Of a stretch of DNA of 64,000 nucleotides, positions 23,817 through 43,914 are shown piece by piece. Position 1 is the first letter of the stretch. Every line of letters starts with the position of its first letter. The stretch is from Candidatus Saccharimonadales bacterium. Its GTDB lineage: Bacteria > Patescibacteriota > Saccharimonadia > Saccharimonadales > EFPC-124. The stretch covers positions 94,134 through 158,133 of the forward strand of contig DATIBO010000006.1 in NCBI GenBank assembly GCA_035457485.1. The letters run 5' to 3'. The position numbers were made by a program, and so were the translations under genes. The notes under the pieces were generated by a model, which worked only from the letters and a program-made list of their open reading frames with translations, did no database searches and was not told the DNA's origin.

Positions 23817-23824
23817 TAAACTTT

Positions 23825-25260: not shown

Positions 25261-25288
25261 AACAGAGGTAAAAGCGTAGAATACTTCC

Positions 25289-25948: not shown

Positions 25949-26016
25949 ATCAAAGCAACTTTAGGTTGTCATAAAACAAAATAACTCCCGCATAAGGAGT
26001 TATTTTTAATAATTTC

Positions 26017-26093: not shown

Positions 26094-26205
26094 ATATTGC
26101 AGCCTTGAAGGCGTATAAACGTCTACATGGCTGCACCTTGAACTAGAAGGTACTTCCCACATTTCGATGCAGAACAGATGTGATTATATCAAGGTTTGGC
26201 AAGAT

Positions 26206-26757: not shown

Positions 26758-26832
26758 AAATAAAGTATATCACTAAACATAAACGCGTAGTACTCGATTT
26801 TATTAACAGATGTGGTAAAATACATAACTAAT

Positions 26833-26922
<90 letters not shown>

Positions 26923-27739: not shown

Positions 27740-28216
27740 ATGGCACGAGGACAAAAGCAAAATGATGATTTGCTGATTGAAGATGAGTTAGCAGCAGCAT
27801 TTTTAGGTGACGACGACGTCGACGTTTCGACGCCACAGAACGATGATCGAGCTGTCGCTCAGCAAGAAGCGACCTGGGAAGAGGATGACGCTGTTCCTGG
27901 TCAGCTTGCTGTTGACGTATTTGAAACAAAAGATAAATTAGTTGTTAAGGCTCGTACAGCAGGCGTAAACAAACAAGACCTAGACGTCAGTATTTCTGAT
28001 GGCATCTTGACCATTAGCGGAACTCTTACAAGCGGCGAAGAAGAAGTTGAACAATGGCATTTGCAAGAATGCTATTGGGGAGAATTCTCTCGTACTTTAG
28101 CTTTGCCGGTTCAAGTCAAAGAAGAAGAAGTTGAAGCTATGCTAAAAGATGGCGTTCTTACAATTAGCTTTGCGAAAATTAAGCAAGAACAAGCTCGTAA
28201 AATTCAGATCCAATAA
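27740..28216 (+). CDS. Hsp20/alpha-crystallin family small heat-shock protein
   Basis: ACD motifs AVDVFETKDKLVVKARTAGV...GVLTISFAK; strong SD GGAGGAGG 8 nt upstream of ATG. Confidence 0.85.
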   Translation: MARGQKQNDDLLIEDELAAAFLGDDDVDVSTPQNDDRAVAQQEATWEEDDAVPGQLAVDVFETKDKLVVKARTAGVNKQDLDVSISDGILTISGTLTSGEEEVEQWHLQECYWGEFSRTLALPVQVKEEEVEAMLKDGVLTISFAKIKQEQARKIQIQ

Positions 28217-28417: not shown

Positions 28418-28849
28418 TTAGGTAAGCTCGTTTGTAACAAACTGAACTGCACCAAAGGCTAGAACTGCAACAACTATACCAATGATTGCGTATAGAATTG
28501 TATTTTTGGCACTTGTGATTGCATTTTGGTCACCCTGTGAAACAGTGTAGCGAATACCACCGATGATCAACATGATTACGGCGATAGAACCGATGATGAA
28601 TATCAAAATGTTGGTGACAATTACAAAGATACCAGTTGAGCCGAACAGTTGCGTGTCGGCACTAGGGCGAACACATTCTGCGCCACCAGCAGGACCCTGA
28701 GAAATATCTGGGTTTGCAGCGTTACATGTTGTTGTAGTAGTTGGTGTTGGACCTGCGTTAACTGCAACTGGGACAACGAACGAAAGACCTAAAACCAACA
28801 ATGGCGCGATCATTAAAGTTTGTGCTGCTTTTTGCAAAAAAGATTTCAC
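28418..28849 (-). CDS. VirB2/TrbC-like T4SS pilin paralog 1 (signal peptide, Thr-rich Cys-pair head, conserved C-terminal core)
   Basis: Core GGIRYTVSQGDQNAITSAKNTILYAIIGIVVAV flanked by two hydrophobic helices; signal peptide ...PVAVNA. Confidence 0.65.
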   Translation of the reverse strand: MKSFLQKAAQTLMIAPLLVLGLSFVVPVAVNAGPTPTTTTTCNAANPDISQGPAGGAECVRPSADTQLFGSTGIFVIVTNILIFIIGSIAVIMLIIGGIRYTVSQGDQNAITSAKNTILYAIIGIVVAVLAFGAVQFVTNELT

Positions 28850-28914
28850 TTAATTTTTCTCCGATTATGCTTTCATTGTAACATTTATTACACAAAATTC
28901 TAGATAGTTTAACT

Positions 28915-29388
28915 TTAGCTGAATTGCCCGGTCACAAACCCGACTATTCCGAAGGCTGCGACAGATAAAACTACACCAACAATGGCGTACAAAATTGTAT
29001 TTTTGGCGGCGCTAATTGCATTTTGGTCGCCCTGCGCGACAGTGTAGCGAATAGCACCGATAATTACCATAATTACCGAAATCGCTCCGACGATAAAGAT
29101 TAGGATATTCGCAACTTGCTGCAAAGTTCCAGTCACGGTTCGGCCGTCTGGACTAGTGCAAGTCGTGCCATCCCAGGTTCCACCAGACCCTAAACAGGCA
29201 GATTCTTTCGCCGTTGAAGACGAAGTGGCTGCAGGAATACAAGTCGTGCCATCCCAGGTTCCACCACCTCTAACACAAGCTGCCTCGAGCGAAGGGTTCG
29301 CCGCAACCGGAGCAATCACAAACAGCGATAAAAACGCCGAAACAAAAGTTATTTTTACAATTCCAGAAAATTTAGCTAAATATCTCAT
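28915..29388 (-). CDS. VirB2/TrbC-like pilin paralog 2 (duplicated Cys-pair head motif)
   Basis: Core GAIRYTVAQGDQNAISAAKNTILYAIVGVVL; head contains GGTWDGTTC twice. Confidence 0.65.
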   Translation of the reverse strand: MRYLAKFSGIVKITFVSAFLSLFVIAPVAANPSLEAACVRGGGTWDGTTCIPAATSSSTAKESACLGSGGTWDGTTCTSPDGRTVTGTLQQVANILIFIVGAISVIMVIIGAIRYTVAQGDQNAISAAKNTILYAIVGVVLSVAAFGIVGFVTGQFS

Positions 29389-29756
29389 ATATTTGTTAAT
29401 ACAAAGTTTACTATTGCATTGGCCATTACTGCAACTATTAGCGCAACCACGGCGTATATAATTGTGTTCTTAGCAGATGTAACTTGAGCCTGATCGCCGC
29501 CGCTAACCGCATATCTAATTGAGCCGATGATTATCATCAGCACGGCAATAGCACCGACTACAAAAGTTAGGGCATTTAAGATATTGTTCCAAATACTATT
29601 AGCACCGAATAGGCTGTCATCTCCACTTGCCGCTGCACAAAGCTCGGTGTTTACTAAATCTGGATCAAGGCATGGATCGATCACCGCCGCACTAGCGGGC
29701 ACAGCAACAAGAGTTGCAATAATGCTAAGTGCTACTAAAATACTTTTTAATTTCAT
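29385..29756 (-). CDS. VirB2/TrbC-like pilin paralog 3
   Basis: Core GSIRYAVSGGDQAQVTSAKNTIIYAVVALIV; signal peptide; single Cys pair; ATGA overlap with paralog 2. Confidence 0.65.
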   Translation of the reverse strand: MKLKSILVALSIIATLVAVPASAAVIDPCLDPDLVNTELCAAASGDDSLFGANSIWNNILNALTFVVGAIAVLMIIIGSIRYAVSGGDQAQVTSAKNTIIYAVVALIVAVMANAIVNFVLTNI

Positions 29757-30028
29757 TATATTCTCCCTAAAACAAATTGAATTAAAGCTACTGCACTCGA
29801 TGAAACAATCAAGCCGATCACTGCATACAAAATTGTATTTTTTGCCTGACCGATCTCTTTTTGCTCGCCATTACTAGTTGCATAGCGAATCGCGCCAATC
29901 AAAATAAAAAGTACACAAATCCCACCAATTGCCGTAAATGTAAGCGACATCGCTGTTCCAATAACCGTATTGTCTAAAGCAACTTTGGGGATTCCGGGGA
30001 TTACTACTGTTTGAGCAAAATTCTTCAT
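29756..30028 (-). CDS. VirB2/TrbC-like pilin paralog 4 (minimal, no variable head)
   Basis: 90 aa consisting only of hydrophobic helix-core-helix: GAIRYATSNGEQKEIGQAKNTILYAVIGLIV. Confidence 0.6.
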   Translation of the reverse strand: MKNFAQTVVIPGIPKVALDNTVIGTAMSLTFTAIGGICVLFILIGAIRYATSNGEQKEIGQAKNTILYAVIGLIVSSSAVALIQFVLGRI

Positions 30029-30459
30029 GATGAGACAAAGCCCCTATATATAAACTGAGTGATTGCGATCGACGAAAGAACAATTATAAGACCAATGATT
30101 GCGTTTTTAATAGTGTCTTTCGCGGCCGACAGGTTACTTGGTTCACCTTGGCTTTTAGTATATTGAATTCCGCCCCATATCACAAAACCGATCGCAATGT
30201 AGCCAGCGAGTTTTAAGACATCGTTAAATAGGGGAATTATTATCTTCCAGATATCGCGAATCGAATTAATAACAACTGTTTGTTCGCAATCACCCTGATT
30301 GTTGCAGGTCTCAACTCTTGTCAGACAGTGATCCCAAGATTCTAAACCTAGGAATTCGAGAGGTGTGCCTTCGCAAGCCGCGAAATTAGTTAAAGGAGCG
30401 GAGGTGAAAGAAAAAATCATTCCTAAACTCAGAATGCCTTCTACGAAAAAACTGATCAT
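30025..30459 (-). CDS. VirB2/TrbC-like pilin paralog 5 (divergent core, four-Cys head)
   Basis: Core GGIQYTKSQGEPSNLSAAKDTIKNAIIGLII; head ACEGTPLEF...DHCLTRVETCNNQGDCEQT. Confidence 0.5.
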   Translation of the reverse strand: MISFFVEGILSLGMIFSFTSAPLTNFAACEGTPLEFLGLESWDHCLTRVETCNNQGDCEQTVVINSIRDIWKIIIPLFNDVLKLAGYIAIGFVIWGGIQYTKSQGEPSNLSAAKDTIKNAIIGLIIVLSSIAITQFIYRGFVSS

Positions 30460-30881
30460 CCTAAAATTCCTCCGGGGATAATAAAGTTCAAAATCGCGAA
30501 CATAAATATGAATAGCAGCAGTCCAACGCAGGCGTTAATGATCACTGTGATCGCTTGTTGCGTTTGCGAACTGTTGCCGCGGGCTGTCATATATAAAAAA
30601 CCTCCCCAAACAATTCCGCCTACAACCACAAGGCCAACTCCACCAGCAAAAAGCGCCAAAACAGCTACTAAAACTTGAACAATTGGATTGGTTTGAAATG
30701 TTGATCCATTCTCGATACAACGTTCGCCGACCAGGGCGATTGAGGTCTTAATTCCTTGCTCGCCTGAGCTCGTTGTGCACCGCAAATTCTGAGGAATCGG
30801 ATTAGCAAGTGCTGCATTAGACATTAAAAAACAGCTGAATAAAGAAACTATCGCAAACAGAATTGGCCGCTTAAAACTCAT
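30456..30881 (-). CDS. pilin-like paralog 6 (most divergent). The ORF track starts at a TTG at 30929; ATG 30881 with a signal peptide is preferred
   Basis: Signal peptide MSFKRPILFAIVSLFSCFLMSNAALA, Cys pair head, C-terminal GGFLYMTARGNSSQTQQAITVIINACVGLLL between two hydrophobic helices. Confidence 0.4.
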   Translation of the reverse strand: MSFKRPILFAIVSLFSCFLMSNAALANPIPQNLRCTTSSGEQGIKTSIALVGERCIENGSTFQTNPIVQVLVAVLALFAGGVGLVVVGGIVWGGFLYMTARGNSSQTQQAITVIINACVGLLLFIFMFAILNFIIPGGILG

Positions 30882-30950
30882 ATCCACATTGTATGCCAAA
30901 ATCGTGCGATAATCTATACGCAAATACAATAATGGCGTATTATATAAACA
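30882..30950. promoter_or_regulatory. 69-bp AT-rich divergent promoter region between pilin array and T4SS operon
   Basis: Only non-coding DNA between the two divergent transcription units; contains TATTATATAA. Confidence 0.35.
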
Positions 30951-32273
30951 ATGAGTCGGACAATTAAATTAGTAGGGCGGTTTTTGTTCTTTGTCGCAAT
31001 AACTCTCGCGGCGAACTTCACACTCCAAGCCACCTCTGCGCACGCAGAAGGCACGATTAGCGGTGGTAATTTTTGCGTAGAAGTAACATTAGGCGACGGT
31101 GAAAAAGCCTGCGCCGTAATCGAGGATGACTTGATAGAAGTTACACTCGATCCAGCCGCAGCCGGCAGCAGTCAAACTATAGATAACGGCAAAATCGATA
31201 TCACAAACGTGCCACGCGGTACCTACACAGTAACTGTCCAATTTGAGCTCACAAAAGAGCTCTGCAGCTCAGTGACTAGTATTATTGGGGATATCATTCC
31301 AATTTCACGAATTATCGACGTTATCACTGGCGGCTTTAACCCAGTAGATACGGTTCTGAGCGCCCGTCTATGTGACAATGACGGCGTTTACCGCGCAAGC
31401 AGAGTTTTTTCTAACGTAAGAGTAGAGGACGGCCAGACCACGTTTTTAATGGGAGACAATAACACAGATAACAGGGTGTTGGCACATGCCATCAGGGTTG
31501 ATCCCGAAACTGGCTTGCCCGTAATTGTCTGTGCGGGCGAAAGCAACTTATTTGTTGACTGGGTTATTTGTCCGGCGATCGAATTCACATTTAGAGCAAT
31601 AGACTTAGCAATTACCTACATTTTAGTGCCTTTTTTGAGCATTAATCCGCTCACAGTCACCACTGTTAACGATCAAGGGCAGACGGTTCAAACCGAGCTC
31701 TATCAGATCTGGGACAACGTCAGAAATGCAACCAATATTTTGTTCATTTTGGTTTTCTTTGTAATGATCTTTTGGCAGGCAATTGGTAGTGTTTATGGTG
31801 TTAAAAAAATTCTTCCGCGGCTTATTCTTATGGCAATCGCAGCAAACTTGTCGTTCTTTATTTGTCAAATAATGATCGATATTTCTAACGTTCTAGGCAT
31901 TGGAATTGCTTCATTACTAACAGCTGCCATTATCGGCGACCAGCCTGTCCTTGACCTTAGCGGAATCATTGCGCCGTTATTTGGGGCATCGGTGCCTATA
32001 CTTGTTGCACTCTTTATTATGATTATTTTCTCTGCGGTTATGATCATAATTGGTGTGCTTGTACTTATTTTCCGACAAATTGTGCTTATATTCTTAGTTC
32101 TAATTTCGCCGGTGGCTTTTGCCGCGGGGGTTTTGCCGAACACCGCCAATTTGCTAAACCAATGGTTCAATATGTTGATTCGACTAGTCTTAATGTACCC
32201 AATTTGTATGTTGATTCTTTCGGCTGCCAGAATAGCTGGTCATATCATAACTAACATAGGAGCACAGTTCTAA
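30951..32273 (+). CDS. VirB6/TrbL-like polytopic T4SS membrane protein
   Basis: Signal peptide, ~200-aa extracytoplasmic domain, then 5-6 TM helices with a long hydrophobic core; first gene of operon. Confidence 0.5.
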   Translation: MSRTIKLVGRFLFFVAITLAANFTLQATSAHAEGTISGGNFCVEVTLGDGEKACAVIEDDLIEVTLDPAAAGSSQTIDNGKIDITNVPRGTYTVTVQFELTKELCSSVTSIIGDIIPISRIIDVITGGFNPVDTVLSARLCDNDGVYRASRVFSNVRVEDGQTTFLMGDNNTDNRVLAHAIRVDPETGLPVIVCAGESNLFVDWVICPAIEFTFRAIDLAITYILVPFLSINPLTVTTVNDQGQTVQTELYQIWDNVRNATNILFILVFFVMIFWQAIGSVYGVKKILPRLILMAIAANLSFFICQIMIDISNVLGIGIASLLTAAIIGDQPVLDLSGIIAPLFGASVPILVALFIMIIFSAVMIIIGVLVLIFRQIVLIFLVLISPVAFAAGVLPNTANLLNQWFNMLIRLVLMYPICMLILSAARIAGHIITNIGAQF

Positions 32274-33532
32274 TGGATTTTATGTTTGACATACTGAATC
32301 ATTTTGCGACAGGCAACGTTATATCTGAGGTTGCACAAAGCTCGATGTTCGCTGCGGCAGGTTTTATAGTTACGGCTGCTGGAATTGGTGGGTTTGCATT
32401 TTCTTTTGGAGCCGCGGACAAAGCCACCAAAGCCATGTACCAGGCAGGGATGAGTGGAGTAAAAAGAGTTGGCAAAATCGGGGCTGGTGCTGCTAAATTT
32501 GGTGCCAAAGAAGCCGTTCGTAACTCTCGCCCAATGCAAGCTTGGCAAGAAGCCAAACGCGAAAAAGCCTTCGCAAGGAAAGGTCGTGCACAGAGAGATT
32601 ACGCAGCCGCATCTTCGAGCGACTCTCTACTGGGTCGAGCATTGCGCGCCTACACCTTTGGTGCTGGTGATAAGAACTTGGCTTTCGCGCAACAAGGTAT
32701 GGTTCGCGACATGCGTGACCGCTCGACAGAGCTTGGATCAACAATTGGCCACATGAACCCGTCAAATCTTAAAGCTCACTTATCCAGTATTGCTAGAGGT
32801 GGCGCTGGAACTGGCATGGACAGTGAGTTGAACGCAGCCGGCATAACATTCAGAGGTCACGGAGCTGCAGCTTCGTCGCTTGCAGTTATGAATCACTTAG
32901 CACAAACAGGTGATCTAAACGAAGACATCATGTCTTACTTAACCGACTCATACTCAGACAATGATAAGCAAGGCACCCCTAAACTCGAGCAAGCAAGATT
33001 GTCCTACTGGTCTGGTCAAGTTCAGGCCGCCCAGCGTGCTGCGGGTGCAAACGGCAACCCATCTATGCTAAAAAACACCGTCGATATTTCTATGGGACCT
33101 CTTGGCACATACACTGCGAGCTACAAGTCGAACGTTGGCGACACCCTAAAGAAGGTTACTGCCGAAAGCTACAAGGGTATGAGTGGCGATGGTGTGGAGT
33201 CTACTGCACGCGCCGTAATGACTCAGGCTCCGAAAGCCACACCAGGCACACCTGGCTTTGTTCCTGGCGCAGTTACATTCCCAGTAAAGACCGTGACCAT
33301 GAAAAAATACAACCCCACAACTGGGGCAACAGAAAGCTTCCCACTCACTCGTTTCGTTGACGACGGGCTACATGAGCTTGCCACAGCTTATGTCCAGGGT
33401 GAAGTTAACGGCACAAGCGCAGCCTACAAAGATCAAGGTGCCCGCGAAAAACTTAATAGCCTGCTTAACGCTAATCCGGCATTTAAAGCACAGCTTGATC
33501 AAATGGTTACTGAGCGCGAACCTCACATGTAG
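32273..33532 (+). CDS. hypothetical T4SS-associated bitopic protein
   Basis: N-terminal TM (AAAGFIVTAAGIGGFAFSF) then ~370-aa soluble domain; translationally coupled (TAATG). Confidence 0.4.
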   Translation: MDFMFDILNHFATGNVISEVAQSSMFAAAGFIVTAAGIGGFAFSFGAADKATKAMYQAGMSGVKRVGKIGAGAAKFGAKEAVRNSRPMQAWQEAKREKAFARKGRAQRDYAAASSSDSLLGRALRAYTFGAGDKNLAFAQQGMVRDMRDRSTELGSTIGHMNPSNLKAHLSSIARGGAGTGMDSELNAAGITFRGHGAAASSLAVMNHLAQTGDLNEDIMSYLTDSYSDNDKQGTPKLEQARLSYWSGQVQAAQRAAGANGNPSMLKNTVDISMGPLGTYTASYKSNVGDTLKKVTAESYKGMSGDGVESTARAVMTQAPKATPGTPGFVPGAVTFPVKTVTMKKYNPTTGATESFPLTRFVDDGLHELATAYVQGEVNGTSAAYKDQGAREKLNSLLNANPAFKAQLDQMVTEREPHM

Positions 33533-33538
33533 GAATCC

Positions 33539-34384
33539 ATGGCCACTTATAAAGTACCTCAAGATGTTGAAGCCGAAGATAAGCTACTTGGACCTTTTAG
33601 CTTTAGACAGTTTGTCTATTTAGCAATTGCTCTTGGGGCAGCAGTAATCGCTTTCTTTTTGTTCAGGGTTTTTCCGCTTTTGTTTTTAATCCCGCTACCT
33701 ATAACCATTTTCTTTGGCGCTTTGGCTTTGCCACTACGAAAAGATCAGCCAATGGAAACATACTTATTGGCCATTGTGAGATTTAATCTAAAACCAAAGC
33801 TTCGTAAGTGGGATCCAGAGGGTGTAATTAGTTATGTAGAAATAATCGCGCCAAAGTTAATGGAGAAACAGCTTACAAAAGAATACGGCGCGGATTCGGC
33901 TCAAGAACGCTTAGACTATCTTGCGCGCGTTATGGACAGTCGTGGTTGGGCTCATAAAGGTGTGGAAACAACCACAAATCCAAGCGTAACTGCAACAGTA
34001 GCGGCCGAAGCTAGATCGACAGTTGATGTCCTAGACGAAGACCAGGCGTTGTCGCGAACCTTTAAGGAGCTTATGGACCAAAAAGCAGAAGAGCAAAGGC
34101 AGGCGGCGATTGAAATGATGAAAAAAGCGCAAACCGAACCCGCTCTGGCAACTCCGGTGAATATAAACTACAACCCTTACCCAACTTCAATGCATCAAAA
34201 AGTTATTCTGCCTGCCGGACAACAAAAGCCCGCACCTGTTGCGCAAAAACCTGCGATGACACCGCCAGTATCACCTGATATAATTAGACTCGCGAACAGC
34301 AATCTGAAGGTGAGTACAATTGCACACGAAATCCAGAAGCTTGAACTTAATAAGGGTGCAGTAGTAGATATTAAACTTCATTAA
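33539..34384 (+). CDS. VirB3/PrgI-like small membrane domain with C-terminal extension
   Basis: N-terminal ~90 aa: charged lead-in then two TM helices (FVYLAIALGAAVIAFFLF / LLFLIPLPITIFFGALAL), position directly upstream of VirB4 as in many T4SS. Confidence 0.35.
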   Translation: MATYKVPQDVEAEDKLLGPFSFRQFVYLAIALGAAVIAFFLFRVFPLLFLIPLPITIFFGALALPLRKDQPMETYLLAIVRFNLKPKLRKWDPEGVISYVEIIAPKLMEKQLTKEYGADSAQERLDYLARVMDSRGWAHKGVETTTNPSVTATVAAEARSTVDVLDEDQALSRTFKELMDQKAEEQRQAAIEMMKKAQTEPALATPVNINYNPYPTSMHQKVILPAGQQKPAPVAQKPAMTPPVSPDIIRLANSNLKVSTIAHEIQKLELNKGAVVDIKLH

Positions 34385-34406
34385 AAATACAGGGAGGGCT
34401 GGTTAA

Positions 34407-35285
34407 ATGCCACCCAACAATCAACAGACAGCTAATCAACAACCGGTTAATGCAACCCTCCCACAGGGTGCTTCACCTTTAGCGGCTCTTCCGCCAACTC
34501 CGGCGGGCAACATCGTGGCAGGTGGCTCACCCCAGGTAGCAAGTACGGGTAACAAACAAAAAAATCCGAATAGCGCGCAAAACAGCTTGCTCATCTCTGA
34601 ACTTCGCGATGGAATGGCCATATTAAACGATGGCACTATGCGCGCTGTAATTGCTTGCCGTTCGATTAACTTTGATCTTATGAGCTCACGCGAACGCGAA
34701 GCAGTTGAATTTTCTTATCAGCAGTTCTTAAACTCACTTTACTTTCCAATGCAAATATTTGTTCGATCCCAAAAAGTCGACATCGGCCCGTATCTTGAAC
34801 GCTTGGGTAAAATTCGCCGCGAACAAGACAACATGCTCCTTGGTGTTTTAATGGACGATTATGTCGACTTTATTGGTATTCTTGCGCAAGAAACCAACAT
34901 TATGGAAAAGAGCTTCTTTATAATAGTGCCTTACTACCCGGGCGGCGATGTTGGAAGCGCAGTCAATACTAGTAAGAACTTTTTAGCAAACTTGTTTTCA
35001 CCGCAGACCCAGCAGCGAATCAGAATCGACGAAAAAACTTATGCAAAAGCTGTCGATGAGCTTCGCAATCGCACCGATACGGTCATAAACGGACTGCTTC
35101 AAATTGGAATCCGTGCCGTCCGATTAAACACAAAAGAGCTAGGCGAACTATACTACAATGTCTACAACCCAGACACAGCTGTGCGCGAACCACTAGGTAA
35201 GTTCGAAAACCTAACTAGTGCTGCAGTCGTTACCAAGGGCGAAGGCAAAGCTCCGCAACCACACTTAGATAAGGAGGCGATGTAA
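34407..35285 (+). CDS. VirB4 N-terminal domain encoded as separate ORF (Q/P-rich disordered lead + VirB4 N-domain)
   Basis: Segment ELRDGMAILNDGTMRAVIACRSINFDLMSSREREAVEFSYQQFLNSLYFPMQIFVRSQKVD matches the N-terminal domain pattern of Gram-positive VirB4 (TrsE/PrgJ/TcpF); SD GGGAGGG upstream. Confidence 0.5.
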   Translation: MPPNNQQTANQQPVNATLPQGASPLAALPPTPAGNIVAGGSPQVASTGNKQKNPNSAQNSLLISELRDGMAILNDGTMRAVIACRSINFDLMSSREREAVEFSYQQFLNSLYFPMQIFVRSQKVDIGPYLERLGKIRREQDNMLLGVLMDDYVDFIGILAQETNIMEKSFFIIVPYYPGGDVGSAVNTSKNFLANLFSPQTQQRIRIDEKTYAKAVDELRNRTDTVINGLLQIGIRAVRLNTKELGELYYNVYNPDTAVREPLGKFENLTSAAVVTKGEGKAPQPHLDKEAM

Positions 35286-35286
35286 T

Positions 35287-37182
35287 ATGGCATTCGGTAA
35301 AAAACCTGATCCAATTGACTTAGCCCAAGCTCAACGCTACCGCGAGCAACAAGAAATCGAGCAAGAATTTTTGCGCGGTATAACAACTCTGCGCGACATC
35401 ATCGCGCCAAGCTCACTCGAAATCCAGAGTGGCTACTTTAGGCTTGGCACAAAATACGCTCGCACACTTTACGTTTATGGCTACCCGCGTCAAATCTTTA
35501 CTGGCTGGCTAAGTCCGATCATCAATATCGACGAAGTTATAGATGTAAGCATGTTTGTTTATCCAGTTGAAAGCCAGGTAGTTTTAAACAATTTGCGCAA
35601 AAAAGTAGGCCAGCTAGAAGCCAGTATTAGCATTAACGCTGAGCGCGGTAAGGTGCGCGATCCGGGCCTACAGGCTGCTATCCAAGACGCCGAGGAACTG
35701 CGTGACCAACTGCAAGTTGGTGCTGAACGCTTTTTTAGGTTTGGCTTGTATATTACAGTTTACGGTGACAGTTTAGATGAGCTGCAGTTTGTGCAACATA
35801 AGATCGAAACAATTCTAGGTCAGCAATTAGTGTTCAGTAAGGTTGCTAGCAGTCAAATGGAGCAAGGAATGAACAGTACGATTCCGCAAATGACCGACCA
35901 GCTACAGATTCGCCACAACATGAATACGGGCGCACTTAGCACAAGTTTTCCGTTTACAAGTGCCGACCTCACCCAAGAAAAAGGTGTGCTTTATGGAATC
36001 AACATGCATAATAACGGCCTTGTGATTTTTGATCGATTCAGTTTAGAGAACGCCAACATGGTGGTGTTTGCAAAATCTGGTGCCGGTAAATCTTTTGCGG
36101 TCAAGCTAGAGGCTTTGCGTAGCTTAATGATGGGTACCGAAGTAATTATCGTAGACCCAGAAAACGAATATCAGCGACTTTGCGATGCGGTAGGCGGAAG
36201 TTATGTTAATCTAAGTTTAAACTCGACCACTCGAATAAATCCATTTGATCTACCAAAAGTAGTTGAAAGCGAAGAGGCCGAGGACGCTCTACGTGCCAAT
36301 CTAATTAACTTACACGGGCTTTTGCGACTTATGATGGGTGGCGCACAAATGTTACCTGGTGGCGTAACTTTGCCAGCGCTCAGCCCAGTAGAAGAAGCTG
36401 ATCTTGATCAAGCTCTGATCGATACCTATGCCCGAGCAGGAATCACGAGCGACCCATTAACTCATACCGGGCAGCCGCCAACAATCAACGATCTTTACGA
36501 GACGCTATTACATATGGGCGGGAGTGGTCCGCAACTTGCACAACGGTTGCGAAAATATACAACTGGAACATTTGCCGGTATCTTTAGTCAGCAATCAAAT
36601 GTGGACATCAACAATAAAATGGTTGTTTTTAGCATCCGAGACCTAGAAGACGAGCTTCGCCCGGTTGCAATGTATATCGTTTTGAGCTACATCTGGAATA
36701 AAACACGCGCCGAGCGACGCAAGCGTTTATTAGTAGTTGATGAGGCTTGGCAGCTAATGAAATATGAAGACTCGGCAAACTTCTTATTCAGCCTCGCTAA
36801 GCGCGCAAGAAAATACTTTTTGGGTATGACCACCATAACTCAGGACGTTGAAGACTTTATGACCAGTAAAATGGGTCGTGCAATTGTGGCGAATGCCAGT
36901 ATGCAAATTCTACTTAAACAGTCCACTTCGGCAGTTGACGTTTTGGCGGATGTGTTTAAGCTAACCGAAGAAGAAAAAAAGCGTTTGGCTCAATTCCCGG
37001 TAGGGCAGGGGTTGTTCTTTGCCGGACCAAATCATGTGCACTTACAGATTATTGCTAGCCCAACTGAGACCGGCTTGATTACAACCAATCCTCAGCAGCT
37101 TCAACAGTTACAACAGCTTTATGCACAGCAACCTAACCCACAGCAACCAATACCAGGTCAAGGAGTAGAAGGTGCCCTATAA
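35287..37182 (+). CDS. virB4: VirB4/TraE-family T4SS ATPase (C-terminal ATPase portion)
   Basis: Walker A AKSGAGKSFAV, Walker B LLVVDEAWQLM, motif ITQDVEDF; SD AAGGAGG 11 nt upstream of ATG; starts 1 nt after stop of upstream N-domain ORF, different frame. Confidence 0.8.
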   Translation: MAFGKKPDPIDLAQAQRYREQQEIEQEFLRGITTLRDIIAPSSLEIQSGYFRLGTKYARTLYVYGYPRQIFTGWLSPIINIDEVIDVSMFVYPVESQVVLNNLRKKVGQLEASISINAERGKVRDPGLQAAIQDAEELRDQLQVGAERFFRFGLYITVYGDSLDELQFVQHKIETILGQQLVFSKVASSQMEQGMNSTIPQMTDQLQIRHNMNTGALSTSFPFTSADLTQEKGVLYGINMHNNGLVIFDRFSLENANMVVFAKSGAGKSFAVKLEALRSLMMGTEVIIVDPENEYQRLCDAVGGSYVNLSLNSTTRINPFDLPKVVESEEAEDALRANLINLHGLLRLMMGGAQMLPGGVTLPALSPVEEADLDQALIDTYARAGITSDPLTHTGQPPTINDLYETLLHMGGSGPQLAQRLRKYTTGTFAGIFSQQSNVDINNKMVVFSIRDLEDELRPVAMYIVLSYIWNKTRAERRKRLLVVDEAWQLMKYEDSANFLFSLAKRARKYFLGMTTITQDVEDFMTSKMGRAIVANASMQILLKQSTSAVDVLADVFKLTEEEKKRLAQFPVGQGLFFAGPNHVHLQIIASPTETGLITTNPQQLQQLQQLYAQQPNPQQPIPGQGVEGAL

Positions 37183-39820
37183 CGTTCCAACGGGAAACGA
37201 ACCAGACTACGAACCGGATTGGCGTTCAAGATTAAATAACTTTGAGGGCCAGCCACAAATACCTGAGGTCCAAGAGCAGGGCCGGCTTTCGCGTGCTGGT
37301 GAACGCATCGGTGACGAAGTAAGCTCACGAGCAGGCGATCTTGCTAGAAAAGGTATCGAAAAAGGCTTTAAAAAAGGCGCTGAACAAGGTGCTAGGACCG
37401 CTGCACAAGCTGGTGGCGAGGCCCTGGCTAACACGGCCGGATCGGCAATTGCTAGCGGGGCTACAGCCGGAACAGCCGAAACCGCGGGCGCATTAGGAGC
37501 TGCTGGTGCCGCCGGTGCTGCAGGTGCCGCGGGCACTGCGGGAACAGCGGGAGCAGCAGGAACGTTGGCTGCGGCGGAAGCGGGGATAGCAGCGGCGGGC
37601 GCCGCATCAGCACCCGAGACAATGGGAGCTGGTTTAGTTGTTGCTGGTGGAGCAATGGCCACTACCGCTGCAGCCGCAGCTACCCCAGTAGCCGTTAAAG
37701 CTGCAACTGGGGTAGATGTTTCGCCGAGTGGAGTTATAAAAGCAGCCACTGGCTCAAAAAGATCACTTTTAGAGACAATAAAAAGCCATAAAGTCATAAT
37801 TATAGCCGTAGCCGTTTTATCGCCACTATTACTTATTTTCGGAGTAGTGTTCTTGGCGTCGCCGTTTAAAGGCGATATCGCAACAAAATCTGTGGCAGAC
37901 AAAGCCTTTTCACCCATAAAAACAATTGTAGAGCTAAGAACTCGCACAATCTTAGCCGGCTATGTAATCGGCGGATCTAAAGCTAGCATTGAGGTCGGGT
38001 TGCCGCAAGCTGGCGGTAAAGCCGGTCAGCTATACACCGCCATGCGCGATTTAGGTTTCGAAGAAGTTATAAAAGATAAGTATTTGCTCGCATTTGAAAG
38101 AGGCAACGAAGCCGGAACCGTACGCGTTGTAAGCCGTGGAATTGGCCTGGGCGACGCAAACACAAACCTTGAGGCATTGGCACTTTTAAACAAAAGCACT
38201 GGGGTGAGAGGTGTTATTCAAAACGAAATGCACTCTTGGGATTGGGCGCAGCATAGCAAAATTGCACAACCAGCCAAGGCTCTTTATCAAAACCCACGAT
38301 TAAACATTCCTGGTGCCGACGAAGCTCAAAGCGGCGAACAGCTAAGCGAAGTTGCCAAATATCGCGTTTCGACCACAACTCAACCGACGGTCACAAACGT
38401 TGGCAGCGCAATGGGCTGTATGCTCGGCACAGGAGTTTGCAACCAAGAGAACGTTCAGCCCGACATAACCGCAAACTCAACCTTACAAGAGAACGAATCG
38501 AGTTCACTAGTAACCGCAACTCAAAAAGCCTTCAATGATAATCTTGAAACAATAAGCCCCGAAACCAACTACGAAGCTCCAACTTTACGCGACAAATCAA
38601 GGAGCAACCTAACAACCCAGCTAACACAAGCTAGTTTGCCACTTTTTGGTTGGCTGGATGTAGGAACAGTAACAGATTACGGCAGCACAGACCCTGCTTA
38701 CAAGGATCTCCCTGTGAATATGCGTCGCCAACAAGCCGGAAGCCTTTTCTTGATGTCGTGGATAGGGACCAGCCAGAGCACAGCCGAGGAAGTTAACTAC
38801 AAATCGGCCGGCATCATGGCAAAAAACTTTGTTGATATGGAAGACTCGCAAGCGTACAACTATATATCCTACGACGACACCAGCAGGGGTAAGCCGCTCG
38901 AAACTTACCAAAAAGTTAACAGCGCCGCCGAAAATCCAATGCAGACCTTCAAGGATTCGTGGTTTACCGAAAACTCCGAACTACAAAATACTTTTGGAAT
39001 TTTTGCCGCCTGGAATGCAATCCGAGACTTGCCGATCTTCGGTTCGATAATTGAACAGTTGGTTACGACAATGGTAAACAACCCGCTAATCAACATCGGT
39101 GGGGAGATAATTGCCAACTCTCCTTTAGTACTTTTACTAAAAAACTTCGGTCCGCAACCCGTTCAAGATTTACTAACATTCTTAACCGAACGCCCTTTAA
39201 GCGAAGTTATTGGCACGAGCTTCGGATTGTCTTCGGATATGTTAATTAACGAATGTGATATGTCTTTAAGGTCATTCAACTTCTTAAACTGCATGGTATC
39301 GGGCGCACAAGACCTATACGTAACCACCTGCGAACAAAACTTTGGTTGTGGCAACTTAAGCGAGCAGGAACTGCAAGAACTCTACGCCTACCGCGCCCAG
39401 GCCGATAAAGAAAACTTAGCCGCATTGCCATGGCAAGAAAGAATGTTCAGTTTAAATACCCCAGGTTCATTGGCGAGTGTAGCAGTTTTGCGATCACCAA
39501 TGCCTATAGATTCAACACAAAACATGGCCTCTTTTGCCAAGGGAATTGCCCGAGCAGTAGCCAGAATTCCAGACAACCTAGCGACAATTTTTGCAGGCAA
39601 AGCACTGGCTGCGGCCAACGATCCAAACAGTATTAGCGGCATAAATAACAATCAGGGCATTCCTCTGGGCACATTGCAAAACACCCAACTTTCGCCGCAA
39701 ATGCTACAAAACGACGGAACCTGCCCCGAAAAACAAGAAGGCGTAGAGGATGTTTGCTGGGCCGATAATGCCACAATCGACGGACTGCTTACTAAATACG
39801 TAACTTACAAATACTTATGA
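37172..39820 (+). CDS. large bitopic protein: Ala/Gly-rich cytoplasmic N-terminus (Gly-X-Y-like repeats), single TM, ~650-aa extracytoplasmic domain (T4SS-associated surface component). GTG start
   Basis: SD AAGGAG 6 nt before GTG; low-complexity (GCN)n DNA 37440..37700; TM IIIAVAVLSPLLLIFGVVFLA; no recognised fold in ectodomain. Confidence 0.5.
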   Translation: MPYNVPTGNEPDYEPDWRSRLNNFEGQPQIPEVQEQGRLSRAGERIGDEVSSRAGDLARKGIEKGFKKGAEQGARTAAQAGGEALANTAGSAIASGATAGTAETAGALGAAGAAGAAGAAGTAGTAGAAGTLAAAEAGIAAAGAASAPETMGAGLVVAGGAMATTAAAAATPVAVKAATGVDVSPSGVIKAATGSKRSLLETIKSHKVIIIAVAVLSPLLLIFGVVFLASPFKGDIATKSVADKAFSPIKTIVELRTRTILAGYVIGGSKASIEVGLPQAGGKAGQLYTAMRDLGFEEVIKDKYLLAFERGNEAGTVRVVSRGIGLGDANTNLEALALLNKSTGVRGVIQNEMHSWDWAQHSKIAQPAKALYQNPRLNIPGADEAQSGEQLSEVAKYRVSTTTQPTVTNVGSAMGCMLGTGVCNQENVQPDITANSTLQENESSSLVTATQKAFNDNLETISPETNYEAPTLRDKSRSNLTTQLTQASLPLFGWLDVGTVTDYGSTDPAYKDLPVNMRRQQAGSLFLMSWIGTSQSTAEEVNYKSAGIMAKNFVDMEDSQAYNYISYDDTSRGKPLETYQKVNSAAENPMQTFKDSWFTENSELQNTFGIFAAWNAIRDLPIFGSIIEQLVTTMVNNPLINIGGEIIANSPLVLLLKNFGPQPVQDLLTFLTERPLSEVIGTSFGLSSDMLINECDMSLRSFNFLNCMVSGAQDLYVTTCEQNFGCGNLSEQELQELYAYRAQADKENLAALPWQERMFSLNTPGSLASVAVLRSPMPIDSTQNMASFAKGIARAVARIPDNLATIFAGKALAAANDPNSISGINNNQGIPLGTLQNTQLSPQMLQNDGTCPEKQEGVEDVCWADNATIDGLLTKYVTYKYL

Positions 39821-41094
39821 ACAACTTAGCTAAACGATTTATCCTAATTTTACTGGCGGCAACACTACTTATCGCGAACGGTGCCAGCGAAGTCAGTGCT
39901 TATAACACTCCTCAAACTGTAGAGAGGGGAGGGCCGGCTTTTGAGGAAGGTTCGTGCAGCGCCACGCCGCAAACATCGGAACTTGAAGGCTTCAAGCTAC
40001 CGGCAACCAAAGGTTATATGGGCAATGAAGATCCAGTAGACGAAAACGGCAATCTTACAACCACCGGAGAGGGCATGGCTTACGGTAAGTTTGCAAAACT
40101 TGGCCAAAATTACCGTGACTTCTACATCACAATGCGGTGGACTACACATGAATGGTTCTGGGACGGCAGCGCCAGAGTGGCCGATCAGGCTCAAATTGCT
40201 TGGCTAAATGAAGCCCCACGAAAAGTTCTAGTAACCAATCCAAGATCAAACAGAAGTATTATTGCCGTTGTTATGGAATCTGGCCCAGCGCCATGGACGG
40301 GCGTAGACACTGAGCGAAATAACGATCCTAAGCAAGGCTGGCAACAGCCACAATTAGGAACACCTGCAGAGTATGGCGGTCGCGTTTCCGGGTTCCCGCC
40401 AGTGGCGGTCGAAGCTTTGCTCGCTCAGCAACGAACGGGTGGTCAAACTAATGGTGATGAGCTGCTTTATTCCTGGGCACCAGACCAAAACGCTGAGCCC
40501 GGACCTACGGACTTATCGGTTCAAAACTCGGACAGTACGGCAATTTGTGCTCCAACAGGTTTAGGTGTAAGCCCAGACGGTTTCGTATTCCCACTAATCA
40601 CAACAAAAACAGAACTCAAAAAAGGTGGCTGGAACCCTAATTGTGTTAACAAAGTTTCATCTATGGGTGCGCTAGGAACAGTCGTGAGAATACAAGGCCT
40701 CTGTCACCACGATTACTTAGCAGCAGACATTCTTGATCCAGTTGGAACTAAAGTTGTTGCCGTACGACCCGGCAGAGTTATTAGGGCGAACTCAGAGATT
40801 AGCTGCTTTAGCCCAAGTGTAACAATATTTAGCGACCCAGCTCTTGGCGGCGACGGTAACACATACTACACAACCCATATGGGGCAGCAAGGCAGGCCTA
40901 CCGAAGACACAATTGTGAATGCGGGCGATATTATTGGCGAAATTGGCGACCCGCACGGTTGCTTCCCACCACACTTGCACATAGACGTCAGTCCGATCCA
41001 AACGGGATTCCCGAGAAATAGCGGTGGAACACACGGCCCTTTACTCGATCCTCAGCCGGCATTAAAAGCTTCTTACCAAACATTACCGGAGTAA
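39817..41094 (+). CDS. secreted M23-family metallopeptidase (peptidoglycan hydrolase)
   Basis: Signal peptide; C-terminal M23 motifs HHDYLAADI and HLHIDV with TYYTTHMGQ between them; ATGA overlap with upstream. Confidence 0.65.
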   Translation: MNNLAKRFILILLAATLLIANGASEVSAYNTPQTVERGGPAFEEGSCSATPQTSELEGFKLPATKGYMGNEDPVDENGNLTTTGEGMAYGKFAKLGQNYRDFYITMRWTTHEWFWDGSARVADQAQIAWLNEAPRKVLVTNPRSNRSIIAVVMESGPAPWTGVDTERNNDPKQGWQQPQLGTPAEYGGRVSGFPPVAVEALLAQQRTGGQTNGDELLYSWAPDQNAEPGPTDLSVQNSDSTAICAPTGLGVSPDGFVFPLITTKTELKKGGWNPNCVNKVSSMGALGTVVRIQGLCHHDYLAADILDPVGTKVVAVRPGRVIRANSEISCFSPSVTIFSDPALGGDGNTYYTTHMGQQGRPTEDTIVNAGDIIGEIGDPHGCFPPHLHIDVSPIQTGFPRNSGGTHGPLLDPQPALKASYQTLPE

Positions 41095-41097
41095 AAA

Positions 41098-42300
41098 ATG
41101 AGAAGAAAAATAATAATTTTCGTCATCGTAGCAGTGGTCCTTGTAGCAATCGGTTTTTTCGCATATAACTTTTTCACCACAGAACAAGTGAACATAAAAA
41201 GCAATAGCCAAAACGCCAAGGTATCTATCTACACATTGCAAAACCAGGTTGTTGACTCTAAAAACGCGCCATACAGCACCCGACTTAAGCCAGGTATATA
41301 CTCGGTAGTTGTTACCGATAACCAAAAAGAGACGCGATCGATTTTTACGTTAAAACAAGGTACCCCTGTAGACCTAACACTCGATTTAGTTGATGTAAAG
41401 TCTCCAAAAAAAATAGCACCCTATTCCTCAAAATACATTTTTGCAGATGAAAACTTTTTGAATTTTATACGCAAGGACGTTAATCAATTAGATAGATTAA
41501 CTTTTGGCGAGAAGTACCTTAAAGAGTTGTCTCAGGGATCATACTCTCAAGCATATTGGGCAAACGCCGATCAAGCCATATTAACTGATACAGCTAATAA
41601 AAGCCACTATTACGACTTTGGGACAATTTCTCCTCTAGGCTATAAAATCACTAACCCAGGTACGATCTCGTTTTTAGGTGATTCACTGGCTTACATAGAA
41701 CAAAAGGTCGTCTACATAAGGCCTACAATCACAGCGGCTCCTGTGGTCGAAGTTCCTGTTAGATTCCTTCAACCGCAATTATCACTTGGTCCAAATAATC
41801 AATTTGTCGTCTTTGAAACAGGCGTGTTTGTGGATGAGACTGAAGGCGAAGAAGGGCAGGCGCAATCCGAATTGAGTAACGCAACTCCCGAAATTTATTC
41901 CGGAAACGAAAGGCTTCAAAAGCAAAGTGATGCGTTGAAAAACTACGTAATCGACGGGGCGACTTGGTCGCCCGATGGCCAGAAACTCGCCTTTAGTGCA
42001 GGCGATGGTATTTATATAATGGATATAAATACATCTTCGATTAGACAACTCTACCTAAGTTATACAACTCATCCACAAAGTATAAAGTGGCTCGACGAAC
42101 AAACATTGATATATTTTCTAGACCAAGGAATATGGAAAATTACGCTAAACGAAACGCCAACATGGAATCTGTTGGCGAAAGTGGAGGGCAGCTTGGGTTG
42201 GAGTGCGCCGCTTTCACTATCTCCCTCAAAAAAGGAGATCTATTACTCATCAGATGAACTACAATCCAGTAATGATGCAGTATACCAGATCGATTTATAA
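41098..42300 (+). CDS. membrane-anchored TolB-like beta-propeller (PD40 repeat) protein
   Basis: N-terminal TM IIIFVIVAVVLVAIGFFAY; PD40-like WSPDGQKLAFSAGDGIYIMD. Confidence 0.5.
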   Translation: MRRKIIIFVIVAVVLVAIGFFAYNFFTTEQVNIKSNSQNAKVSIYTLQNQVVDSKNAPYSTRLKPGIYSVVVTDNQKETRSIFTLKQGTPVDLTLDLVDVKSPKKIAPYSSKYIFADENFLNFIRKDVNQLDRLTFGEKYLKELSQGSYSQAYWANADQAILTDTANKSHYYDFGTISPLGYKITNPGTISFLGDSLAYIEQKVVYIRPTITAAPVVEVPVRFLQPQLSLGPNNQFVVFETGVFVDETEGEEGQAQSELSNATPEIYSGNERLQKQSDALKNYVIDGATWSPDGQKLAFSAGDGIYIMDINTSSIRQLYLSYTTHPQSIKWLDEQTLIYFLDQGIWKITLNETPTWNLLAKVEGSLGWSAPLSLSPSKKEIYYSSDELQSSNDAVYQIDL

Positions 42301-42351: not shown

Positions 42352-43914
42352 CTATGCTGGAAGCATAGTACAAATTTTTCTTCGGAGGTCAGGACTGATA
42401 TTACGACAAACGTAACTATCGCCCGTTAATCCACTCGACCCCCCCATATAGTAGACCCATCTACCATCCTTCCATTCAAGAGCAATGGAATATCCGTCTC
42501 CCCAAGTACCATAATCCTCGAGGTAAGAGTTGGCGTCGGCAACTATCCAGTTGTCGCTGCACCAAACCCGAAAAACTTCAGCATTACCTGGAAGTTGAGC
42601 AATCGCCTTAACCTCTTTTGCAGTCAAACATGGTACAATTCGAGTTACTTTGATTTGCAAAGTCCCGACGATCTGCATCCGCACCCCCTCCAGCGCGCTC
42701 ATCACCGTTGTCCATCCGAGTTTTACACCCTCGACGACGGCAAAAAAGCGGCCAAAGAACTTTTCGGTGAAGGTCATTGGATCGGCGAAGCCGCCCATTA
42801 CCCTCAACACGGTTTCGCCGCATTTGCTTGCCACGATTTCGTAAAAATCGTAGAAGCTCATTTTGGCGATGTCTTTGCCGAGCTTGGCAGCGTTACCCAG
42901 GCAACTCACGACATCTTGGATGTCGAGCAGCGCCCTGGCTCGCTTGACCGAAGTTGTTAGGTCCTCGCCGGTGGCAATACTAGCCAAGAACTTCAGCGAT
43001 CCCCAAATAGCTTCGGCCAAAAACACGTTAGGCTCAGCTCGCAACTCCACAGTTGCCGGCAGATTACTGGCCGTTAACTGCGCATCAAGCACGGCTCGTC
43101 GCGGCAAAAATGCCTGAGTTGCCTTGTTGTTGAACAGCTGCTTTGCCAGCTCAATGGTGTAGCGCTCGTCGTCGGTGGTCTCGCCGCCAACATCGAACTT
43201 AACACCCTTCGTGGCTGCAACCGACAAAATGTACTCGACGCGATTACTAACGCTGAGCATCGCTGTTTTGCCGGCGGCGTTCAGGCAGGCTCGAATCGGA
43301 CTGTCGGGTTTGGTCGTCGACCAGCCTGTCATACCGCTGATTTTGACCTTGCCGAGCTCGTTGGTCTTGACCTCGGTTTTACAGTCACCATCTTGCGGCG
43401 TACCTAGCAGAGACGGGCTGACGATTCCGCGCAGTGGCTCGTCGAGCAAGTATGACACTGTCTTGGGCGACAGATGCGGAACTTGCGCCTTGAGCACGTC
43501 ACCCTCGACGATTGCCGGCAAAAGCCGCCAGCCATCGCCATTGGGCGCGGGAGTGTAGAGCAGCGCTTGATCTGGCCGAACGCCAGCGGGCAAAAACTTG
43601 CCCTGCAGCTTCAGCTCGATCGTAAGCGGTTTAAGCGGTTGTGCTCCGCCCTCAAAACTGAGGTCGAACGTGCTCGAAGCCTTGAACAGGCTCGAAGCCG
43701 GCTTGTAGCTCTTAGGCTCGATCATGGTCAGGCGTGTGCCAACCTTAACCGCGCCATCCGGCACATGTACGGTAAGTTCGCCGAGAGTGTACGTGCCACT
43801 CTTATCGATCTTAACGGTGTGCTTCGCCGGCTCGTCACTACGAGTGCAGGCCGCACCAGCAGCCAGCATCAGCATCGAACAGGCGAGCGCAATTGTGCGC
43901 TTAATCTTAACCAC
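42352..43914 (-). CDS. hypothetical lipoprotein encoded by a ~62% GC single-gene island
   Basis: Lipobox LAAGAAC after basic n-region; 520 aa; GC about 62% versus about 43% in flanks; multiple stop-free antisense ORFs. Confidence 0.55.
   Translation of the reverse strand: MVKIKRTIALACSMLMLAAGAACTRSDEPAKHTVKIDKSGTYTLGELTVHVPDGAVKVGTRLTMIEPKSYKPASSLFKASSTFDLSFEGGAQPLKPLTIELKLQGKFLPAGVRPDQALLYTPAPNGDGWRLLPAIVEGDVLKAQVPHLSPKTVSYLLDEPLRGIVSPSLLGTPQDGDCKTEVKTNELGKVKISGMTGWSTTKPDSPIRACLNAAGKTAMLSVSNRVEYILSVAATKGVKFDVGGETTDDERYTIELAKQLFNNKATQAFLPRRAVLDAQLTASNLPATVELRAEPNVFLAEAIWGSLKFLASIATGEDLTTSVKRARALLDIQDVVSCLGNAAKLGKDIAKMSFYDFYEIVASKCGETVLRVMGGFADPMTFTEKFFGRFFAVVEGVKLGWTTVMSALEGVRMQIVGTLQIKVTRIVPCLTAKEVKAIAQLPGNAEVFRVWCSDNWIVADANSYLEDYGTWGDGYSIALEWKDGRWVYYMGGSSGLTGDSYVCRNISPDLRRKICTMLPA

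Follow-up and report, generated by a model that had tools for sequence, protein, structure and literature searches.

A probable non-conjugative type IV secretion system beside dnaA in a Candidatus Saccharimonadales bacterium

What does a type IV secretion system (T4SS) do for a bacterium when its genes lie on the chromosome beside dnaA, and no gene for a relaxase or a coupling protein accompanies them? The question is raised by positions 28418-42300 of a 64,000-nucleotide (nt) stretch of Candidatus Saccharimonadales DNA (assembly GCA_035457485.1, contig DATIBO010000006.1, positions 94,134 to 158,133), the whole of which is referred to here as the window. The source is an uncultured metagenome-assembled genome and the locus lies in chromosomal DNA. 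A first-pass annotation, made from the sequence without database searches, had proposed a non-conjugative, multi-pilin T4SS of the kind found in Patescibacteria and tied to epibiosis; synteny with a published gene cluster, VirB4 identities and the literature all agree with this proposal. The probability that the locus is a chromosomal, vertically inherited T4SS of the Saccharimonadia, and the counterpart of SEML1_0005-0019 in Southlakia epibionticum ML1, is placed at about 90%. The system is derived from the conjugation machinery of single-membrane bacteria and is no longer conjugative.

Gene order, relatives and the VirB4 motor

The locus is made up of two divergent, tightly packed units, a pilin unit on the minus strand and a machinery unit on the plus strand, and all of its open reading frames (ORFs) are intact. 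This layout had been recognised correctly, adjacent genes of the plus-strand operon (30951-42300) overlapping by at most 11 nt and lying at most 22 nt apart. The operon had been credited with nine genes; eight ORFs were counted, there is no space for a ninth, and one of the eight, the TrsD-like gene D292, had been missed.

Gene order follows that of S. epibionticum ML1 (SEML1_0005-0021). The two have in common dnaA, dnaN, recF, a small anchored protein, a hydrolase, a protein of ~900-1,100 amino acids (aa), VirB4, a TrsD-like protein, PrgI, a VirB6-like protein, six VirB2-type pilins, Hsp20, ComFC and tRNA-Ser. The S. epibionticum T4SS has been described as resembling Gram-positive conjugative T4SSs, with an essential series of pilins and no recognisable coupling or relaxase proteins (Wang et al. 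2023, Cell; PMC10633639). In that species, the one cultured species tested, nearly every T4SS gene scored as essential in transposon sequencing (Tn-seq) of co-cultures, including those for the six pilins, VirB4, the TrsD-like protein, PrgI, the VirB6 paralogues, a 1,114-aa protein and a lysozyme (PMC10633639). A survey of the phylum likewise reported a VirB4 clade related to MPF-FATA (the class of monoderm conjugation systems), accompanied by TrsD, PrgI and VirB6, arrays of 2-11 VirB2 genes, proximity to dnaA, and few relaxases (Quinonero-Coronel et al. 2025; PMC12102498), and published descriptions of such loci have no relaxase nearby.

For comparison, 80 species-level loci were taken from GTDB genomes and joined by L081, the closest relative found, whose VirB4 is 96% identical to that of the window, giving 81 related loci. 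The order conserved among them runs from comFC and hsp20 (where the flank reaches that far) through 5-7 pilins, one or more VirB6-like genes, PrgI, a TrsD-like gene and VirB4 to a protein of ~800-1,500 aa, one of ~400-630 aa and an anchored one of ~200-240 aa, followed by recF, dnaN and dnaA. The locus lies beside recF-dnaN-dnaA in dozens of species, and dnaN is found no more than 10 kb from it in 34 of the 37 full-length loci.

Pfam scans of ~60 ORFs across the 64-kb window detected no relaxase, VirD4, VirB11, integrase or transposase, in agreement with what the first-pass annotation had reported; these absences hold for the window rather than for the genome. Outside the locus, the same scans found only housekeeping and envelope-synthesis genes. 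Profiles for VirB4 and, in five of the six genes, for VirB2-type pilins were matched above their cut-offs, matches to VirB6 were weak, and no relaxase or integrase flanks the locus within the 64 kb.

The motor is E631, a 631-aa VirB4 ATPase (35287-37182, plus strand) and the only ATPase in the locus. It scores 355 bits against the CD1110-family model NF045971 (cut-off 325) and 107 bits against PF19044, matches PDB entry 4AG5 at 3e-49, and carries the Walker A (GAGKS, residue 265, nt 36079-36093) and Walker B (VVDEAW, residue 483, nt 36733-36750) motifs that had been noticed at the outset. On the strength of its sequence it is assigned to the Patescibacteria VirB4 clade related to MPF-FATA. Matches to CedB and CedD were below threshold. 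Many Candidatus Saccharimonadales proteins share 85-97% identity with E631, and VirB4 identity across the species sampled is 77-97%.

Directly upstream is D292 (34407-35285, plus strand), a soluble protein that matches the TrsD model NF041427 at E=1.1e-4, under its cut-off, and whose orthologue directly precedes virB4 in 75 of the 81 loci. Positions 234-280 of model NF045975 are matched by D292 and E631 resumes from 288; the two proteins together are collinear with a full-length VirB4, D292 corresponding to its N-terminal part. A precomputed match to PF26593 (TraC-like) is recorded for the L081 orthologue, which is 85% identical, and was not reproduced by the local Pfam scan. Neither D292 nor its family profile matched any PDB sequence.

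C281 (33539-34384, plus strand) is the PrgI/VirB3-like membrane protein that had been predicted; residues 5-89 score 54.8 bits against PF12666 (cut-off 27), a C-terminal extension of ~190 aa follows, and a counterpart is present in 73 of the 81 loci.

The first gene of the operon, A440 (30951-32273, plus strand; 440 aa), had been called a VirB6-like polytopic protein. It is indeed polytopic, being composed of a signal or anchor segment, a lineage-specific ectodomain of ~155 aa and a membrane domain at residues ~180-438; its VirB6 identity is suggested by weak, convergent evidence. Searching Pfam with A440 itself gave no match. The best PDB match of the family profile is TrwI, the VirB6 of R388 (E=0.041), an orthologue matches Pfam TrbL weakly (E=0.008), and a TrbL_3 match precomputed for the L081 orthologue was not reproduced by the local scan. 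The membrane domain was found in 56 of the 81 loci, mostly within 'extended VirB6' proteins of ~730-1,300 aa, which often occur as two paralogues.

Between A440 and C281 lies B419 (32273-33532, plus strand), a bitopic 419-aa ORFan. Searches with tblastn and blastp against relatives, with jackhmmer, with hhalign against the family of VirB6 C-terminal extensions and through 5.8 billion proteins returned only B419 itself, and its single-sequence AlphaFold2 (AF2) model is uninformative (predicted local distance difference test, pLDDT, 41). In the close relatives L003 and L004 the gene in this slot is a split-off C-terminal extension of long VirB6 proteins.

Pilins and the wall-associated genes

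Six tandem pilin ORFs occupy 28418-30929 of the minus strand (28418-30881 if the sixth starts at its ATG), as had been claimed. Five of the six exceed the gathering score of PF18895 (T4SS_pilin, 26.6 bits), and in the alignment all six have a two-helix hairpin core with nine invariant columns. A signal-like hydrophobic segment begins five of them, and the same number bear a variable N-terminal region with two or four cysteines; the exception in both respects is the fourth, which is core only.

Pilin 1 (28418-28849; 143 aa) is a VirB2-type protein scoring 34.4 bits, with a signal-like N-terminus and two cysteines in its variable region, and shares 70% identity with its positional counterpart in L081. 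Pilin 2 (28915-29388; 157 aa, 40.1 bits) has four cysteines, and within its variable N-terminal region (residues 38-77) the cysteine-containing motif GGTWDGTTC occurs twice as a direct repeat, which points to duplication of a disulfide-bonded module on what is presumed to be the pilus surface. Pilin 3 (29385-29756; 123 aa) has the highest PF18895 score, 51.9 bits, and matches PF04956 (TrbC/VirB2) at 23.6 bits, under the cut-off of that family. Pilin 4 (29756-30028; 39.5 bits) is 90 aa long and has no signal peptide; most related arrays have a pilin of ~90-114 aa at this position. Pilin 5 (30025-30459; 144 aa, 38.6 bits) carries four cysteines in its N-terminal region. Pilin 6 (30456-30881; 141 aa from the ATG) is the most divergent, with 21.1 bits, and is assigned by the core alignment. 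Its ORF reaches upstream to a TTG at 30929 and adjoins the divergent promoter region; the ATG at 30881 is most likely the start, which leaves an AT-rich intergenic region of 69 bp (30882-30950) that is presumed to hold both promoters. Scans for consensus promoters and terminators gave nothing above shuffled expectation.

A DnaA-box-like 9-mer (ATATCCACA) was found at 30880-30888, in the region between the two units. Control of the T4SS by DnaA through this box was considered and rejected; the 9-mer is probably a chance match because it is absent from all 21 related intergenic regions.

Each pilin of the window has its best L081 match at the identical position of the array. Across species the order of pilin types is also kept, with two to four of type 1-3, then the short ~90-114-aa protein, then type 5, and type 6 next to the promoter region. 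This conserved order, together with the essentiality of each pilin in S. epibionticum, argues for distinct roles rather than interchangeable variants.

The three genes that follow VirB4 encode a large membrane protein, a putative hydrolase and an anchored protein. The first, F882 (37172-39820, plus strand), is the 882-aa bitopic, alanine- and glycine-rich protein that had been described; it has one transmembrane helix (208-226), and residues 61-215 are 34% alanine and 17% glycine. The Ala/Gly-rich N-terminal region is presumed to be cytoplasmic and the ~630-aa, all-alpha domain extracellular. All eight cysteines are within this ectodomain, as neighbouring pairs, which fits an extracytoplasmic location, and two of these pairs show little or no variation throughout the family. 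An AF2 model of the ectodomain, built with a 38-sequence alignment, is predicted with good confidence (pLDDT 86.2, predicted TM score, pTM, 0.85) to be almost wholly alpha-helical. Foldseek found no structural neighbour in the PDB (best E 0.3, TM at most 0.12) and no sequence similarity to solved proteins was detected; against the viral structures of BFVD there were only insignificant matches to tape-measure proteins (E=0.026, TM 0.11), which are not counted as evidence.

Full-length F882 used as a query gave one protein, probably as the Ala/Gly-rich region swamped the word index, and the ectodomain was used instead. An exhaustive search of 1.84 billion proteins then yielded a family of 64 cluster representatives. 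It is a family of the Saccharimonadia, lies directly after VirB4 in 69 of the 81 loci, and is often fused to peptidoglycan hydrolases; in ~15 loci the C-terminus is fused to an M23 domain such as that of the next gene.

That gene, G425 (39817-41094, plus strand; 425 aa), encodes a protein with a signal-like N-terminal segment, a lineage-specific N-terminal region of ~270 aa for which the 81 loci gave no homologue, and an M23 peptidase domain at the C-terminus. It had been annotated as a secreted M23 hydrolase, and this stands as far as the domain is concerned (PF01551, 29.6 bits; cut-off 28.7) and the HxH motif, which is kept (HLH at 386). In the first motif, HxxxD, the canonical histidine is replaced by tyrosine (YLAAD at 300). 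Just upstream of it is a CHHD sequence, conserved in a small subgroup of related proteins (e.g. those of L025, L078 and L007), which might supply the zinc ligand from a shifted position.

In L081, the gene that takes the place of G425 (13100-14500 of that locus) has only ~55 N-terminal residues in common with G425. This common part consists of the signal-like segment and a PQxVExGGPA motif, and the remainders show no detectable similarity; the common part could serve as a conserved tag, for docking or export, to which interchangeable cargo domains are joined.

H400 (41098-42300, plus strand; 400 aa) ends the operon. It had been described as a membrane-anchored, TolB-like propeller protein; the N-terminal anchor is confirmed, while the propeller signals of the C-terminal half (residues ~264-384) are all below threshold (PD40, 18.9 against 20.9; TIGR02800 TolB, 19.8 against 343; DPPIV_N, under its cut-off). 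With jackhmmer the first ~180 aa match anchored operon-end proteins of 200-300 aa in 30 loci, four of which have long versions of 390-476 aa; the C-terminal half alone was found only in L004 among the 81 loci. PADLOC defence models matched none of the unknown genes.

In 55 loci, Pfam hydrolase domains were surveyed in the C-terminal 350 residues of the F882-like protein and in the gene after it. Phage_lysozyme2 was the most frequent (41 members), followed by M23 (19), VanY (17), Peptidase_C39_2 (10), CHAP (9), NlpC/P60 (6), Amidase_3 (5) and M15_4 (4), with Glucosaminidase and SLT also present. The survey shows that the predicted peptidoglycan-hydrolase domains at the position after VirB4 are shuffled between loci and that the repertoire is combinatorial. 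The first-pass annotation had left the 882-aa protein and the M23 protein with no T4SS role, which holds in part; peptidase or lysozyme genes downstream of virB4 have been proposed as likely substitutes for VirB1 (PMC12102498), and the family of the 882-aa protein is fused to such hydrolases.

Comparison with L081 separates these genes from the motor. Identity is 96% for VirB4, 89% for Hsp20, 85% for both the TrsD-like protein and DnaA, and 72% for PrgI; it falls to 56-72% for the pilins, 53% for A440 and 52% for the F882 ectodomain, and B419, H400 and the 520-aa protein encoded beyond the operon (U520) have no match there. The comparison sets a near-invariant engine (VirB4, TrsD, PrgI and the VirB6 membrane domain) apart from a periphery whose genes are exchanged even among the nearest relatives that were found.

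What the system may transport

The T4SS is rather more likely to be a pilus or conduit directed at the host bacterium than to be anything else. From the short divergent promoter region, the six-gene pilin operon and the eight-gene machinery operon would be expressed; A440 and C281 would form a membrane platform on which the two-part VirB4 (D292 and E631), the only motor, docks. The motor would extract VirB2-type pilins from the membrane and polymerise them into a hetero-pilin fibre of specialised types (6, 5, 4 and three copies of type 1-3), with the variable cysteine-rich N-terminal regions on the pilus surface. F882, G425 and H400 would act as a module that crosses and cuts the cell wall, and the pilus would link epibiont and host as a conduit that depends on contact. 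The fast turnover of the wall module between close relatives suggests that some or all of it acts on the wall of the host.

As to direction, the import of nucleic acids or other macromolecules from the host is tentatively favoured over export of effectors. It is favoured because VirB4 is the only motor, as in ComB and Ced, because no coupling protein or effector-like pair is present in cis, and because the signal-like segment of the secreted hydrolase is an ordinary one. Reviews have proposed that the pilus is used for uptake, one of them (2025, FEMS Microbiol Rev) speculating that it carries signals or imported material; a 2024 perspective (PNAS) called the role of the T4SS in Saccharibacteria 'completely unknown', and a 2026 preprint described, for a different member of the phylum, uptake of host RNA and tubular structures that may be T4SS pili.

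Several points weigh against a host-directed conduit. For no Saccharibacterial T4SS has a pilus, substrate or direction been demonstrated by experiment. That importers use VirB4 alone is an analogy from a small sample, and hydrolase turnover could instead reflect changes in the wall of the epibiont itself or relaxed constraint. The first zinc-ligand motif of G425 is non-canonical and its peptidase activity is putative; A440 is only weakly VirB6-like (E=0.04 and E=0.008); and no VirB8-like (NTF2-fold) component of the PrgL or TraM kind was recognised by sequence in the window. Many Patescibacteria genomes have VirD4-like genes far from virB4 (PMC12102498), and one elsewhere in this genome could support export.

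Export is the strongest of the alternatives, and is a possibility of lower standing. Proteins would be injected or secreted into the host bacterium, reprogramming or damaging it, in the manner of the bacteria-killing T4SSs of Xanthomonas and Stenotrophomonas or of Streptococcus suis 89K. The majority of non-conjugative T4SSs export proteins, the literature speculates as much for Saccharibacteria, and the variable secreted hydrolases could be cargo; the VirD4-like genes that often lie far from virB4 in Patescibacteria would also fit (PMC12102498). The window, however, contains no coupling protein, VirB11 or recognisable effector-immunity pair, and as the signal-like segment of G425 is ordinary, a T4SS would not be needed for its export. 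There are precedents for export with no coupling protein in Bordetella Ptl and Brucella VirB; both presumably retain VirB11, of which there is none in the window, and this counts against the parallel.

An import system of a narrower kind, a DNA-uptake T4SS like ComB or Ced that works with the neighbouring comFC in natural transformation, is improbable. Genes for a ComFC-like protein and tRNA-Ser flank the pilin array both here and in S. epibionticum, VirB4 is the sole ATPase with its weak CedB and CedD matches, and co-location of T4SS and comF has been reported for the ABY1 class (PMC12102498). Against this, competence in S. epibionticum relies on type IV pili and ComEC. Deletion of comEC is viable (2025 FEMS Microbiol Rev review) and comFC (SEML1_0021) is non-essential there, whereas the T4SS is essential. 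With both com genes dispensable, what makes the T4SS essential is unlikely to be classical transformation.

There is equally little to recommend an organelle of attachment only, in which pilins and wall module would make an adhesive fibre or anchor with nothing passing through. Conjugative pili are mainly attachment devices and the variable cysteine-rich regions of the pilins would suit surface recognition, but Saccharibacteria already attach by type IV pili and dedicated adhesins, and a VirB6/VirB3/VirB4 translocon whose VirB4 is so strongly conserved across species suggests more than assembly of a fibre. An ordinary integrative conjugative element or its decaying remnant is effectively refuted; VirB4, PrgI and TrsD do derive from single-membrane-bacteria conjugation machinery, but no relaxase, coupling protein, integrase or transposase is present in the window, the position beside recF-dnaN-dnaA is fixed in dozens of species, GC content equals that of the flanks, the ORFs are intact and their orthologues are essential in S. 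epibionticum.

The host-directed conduit that is favoured here can be extended to a more speculative proposal, which is considered doubtful. The fast-evolving periphery would be a host-range module, in which the F882 ectodomain is the wall-spanning part of the conduit of a single-membrane bacterium and the hydrolases, matched to the peptidoglycan of the host and not of the epibiont, open the host wall, so that a machine powered by VirB4 alone pulls in host nucleic acids or other macromolecules. Such a module may comprise the F882-family ectodomain, the shuffled hydrolase domains, B419 and the lineage-specific ends of A440, G425 and H400. If it is true that the periphery sets host range, the rules by which epibiont and host are paired might be readable from the genomes of uncultured Saccharibacteria.

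Neighbouring genes and likeness to known systems

To the left of the locus are genes for Hsp20 (27740-28216), a ComFC-like protein (26944-27621) and tRNA-Ser (26833-26922). To the right are U520 (42352-43914, minus strand), recF (43966-45039), dnaN (45039-46130) and dnaA (46388-47758), the 3' end of which is 4.1 kb from the end of the operon; for dnaA this agrees with the distance of about 4 kb given earlier, and comFC had likewise been placed correctly on the other side. Four DnaA boxes, one of them perfect (TTATCCACA), are located at 47811-47923, upstream of dnaA and between it and rnpA. This cluster and a cumulative GC-skew minimum near 44-46 kb mark the likely oriC.

U520, a 520-aa cytoplasmic protein between the T4SS operon and recF, has no family match and only weak matches to armadillo repeats. 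Its region has a GC content of 0.51, above that of its neighbours, and among the 81 related loci it is present in just L003 and L006; it looks like a sporadic insertion.

Further from the locus, three tRNA-Ser genes (cga, gct and tga) and one tRNA-Arg gene lie among two NUDIX genes and several unknown ORFs at 22633-26922. The ORF at 22587-23816 overlaps tRNA-Ser(cga), so its true start must be further downstream. At 9980-15583 two tandem FemAB-family genes stand beside two Mur-ligase genes, which suggests a peptidoglycan with an interpeptide bridge and bears on what G425 could cut. On the other side of the origin (50144-62915) is a large surface-polysaccharide cluster with several GT4 and GT2 glycosyltransferases, a Wzm/Wzt-type ABC exporter, a UDP-GlcNAc 2-epimerase, a UDP-glucose dehydrogenase and an epimerase/dehydratase.

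The headline features of the locus were all published in 2023-2025 and it adds no new kind of system; it is an ordinary member of the known Saccharibacterial T4SS, with some fast-changing accessory genes. What is added is the pattern of engine and periphery, the F882 family, the hydrolase repertoire and the fixed positions of the pilins. Gene fusions tie the F882 family to wall hydrolases, and the comparative points are testable in S. epibionticum, which is genetically tractable.

The closest known system, that of ML1, differs in several respects. One short VirB6 gene followed by the ORFan B419 is found here, whereas ML1 has two extended VirB6 paralogues of ~1,000 aa. The NTF2-like protein of ML1 (VirB8 fold, SEML1_0012) has no counterpart that could be found in the window. 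The hydrolase is encoded here by a stand-alone M23 gene; ML1 has a lysozyme/cysteine-peptidase protein and a DD-peptidase domain fused to the large protein, the latter being SEML1_0007, the counterpart of F882, which ends in that domain. H400 has an additional C-terminal half, with its weak propeller signals, and U520 lies between the operon and recF, neither of which is the case in ML1.

Likeness to the conjugation systems of Gram-positive bacteria is seen in the VirB4, which scores above the CD1110-family cut-off, in the PrgI-type VirB3, in the separate TrsD-like protein ahead of VirB4 (as in pGO1) and in the lack of outer-membrane core components. The large, anchored, hydrolase-associated protein after VirB4 (F882) presumably resembles PrgK or TraG. 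In contrast to those systems, the locus has VirB2-type pilins, lacks a relaxase, a coupling protein and an adhesin in cis, and is chromosomal and vertically inherited.

The T4SS-type machines compared here that have a VirB4-type ATPase alone are importers: ComB of H. pylori and Ced of archaea. With them the locus shares a VirB4-type ATPase as sole motor, VirB2-like pilins and the lack of a relaxase or coupling protein (here, in the locus). ComB has an outer-membrane VirB7-10 core, and Ced is archaeal with other partners; neither is known to possess an array of six pilins or a hydrolase module, or to be required for growth.

Tandem, sequence-divergent virB2 paralogues are also a feature of the Bartonella and Anaplasma T4SSs. 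Those arrays have been read as antigenic or host-range variation of a single function, whereas here the paralogue types hold fixed positions.

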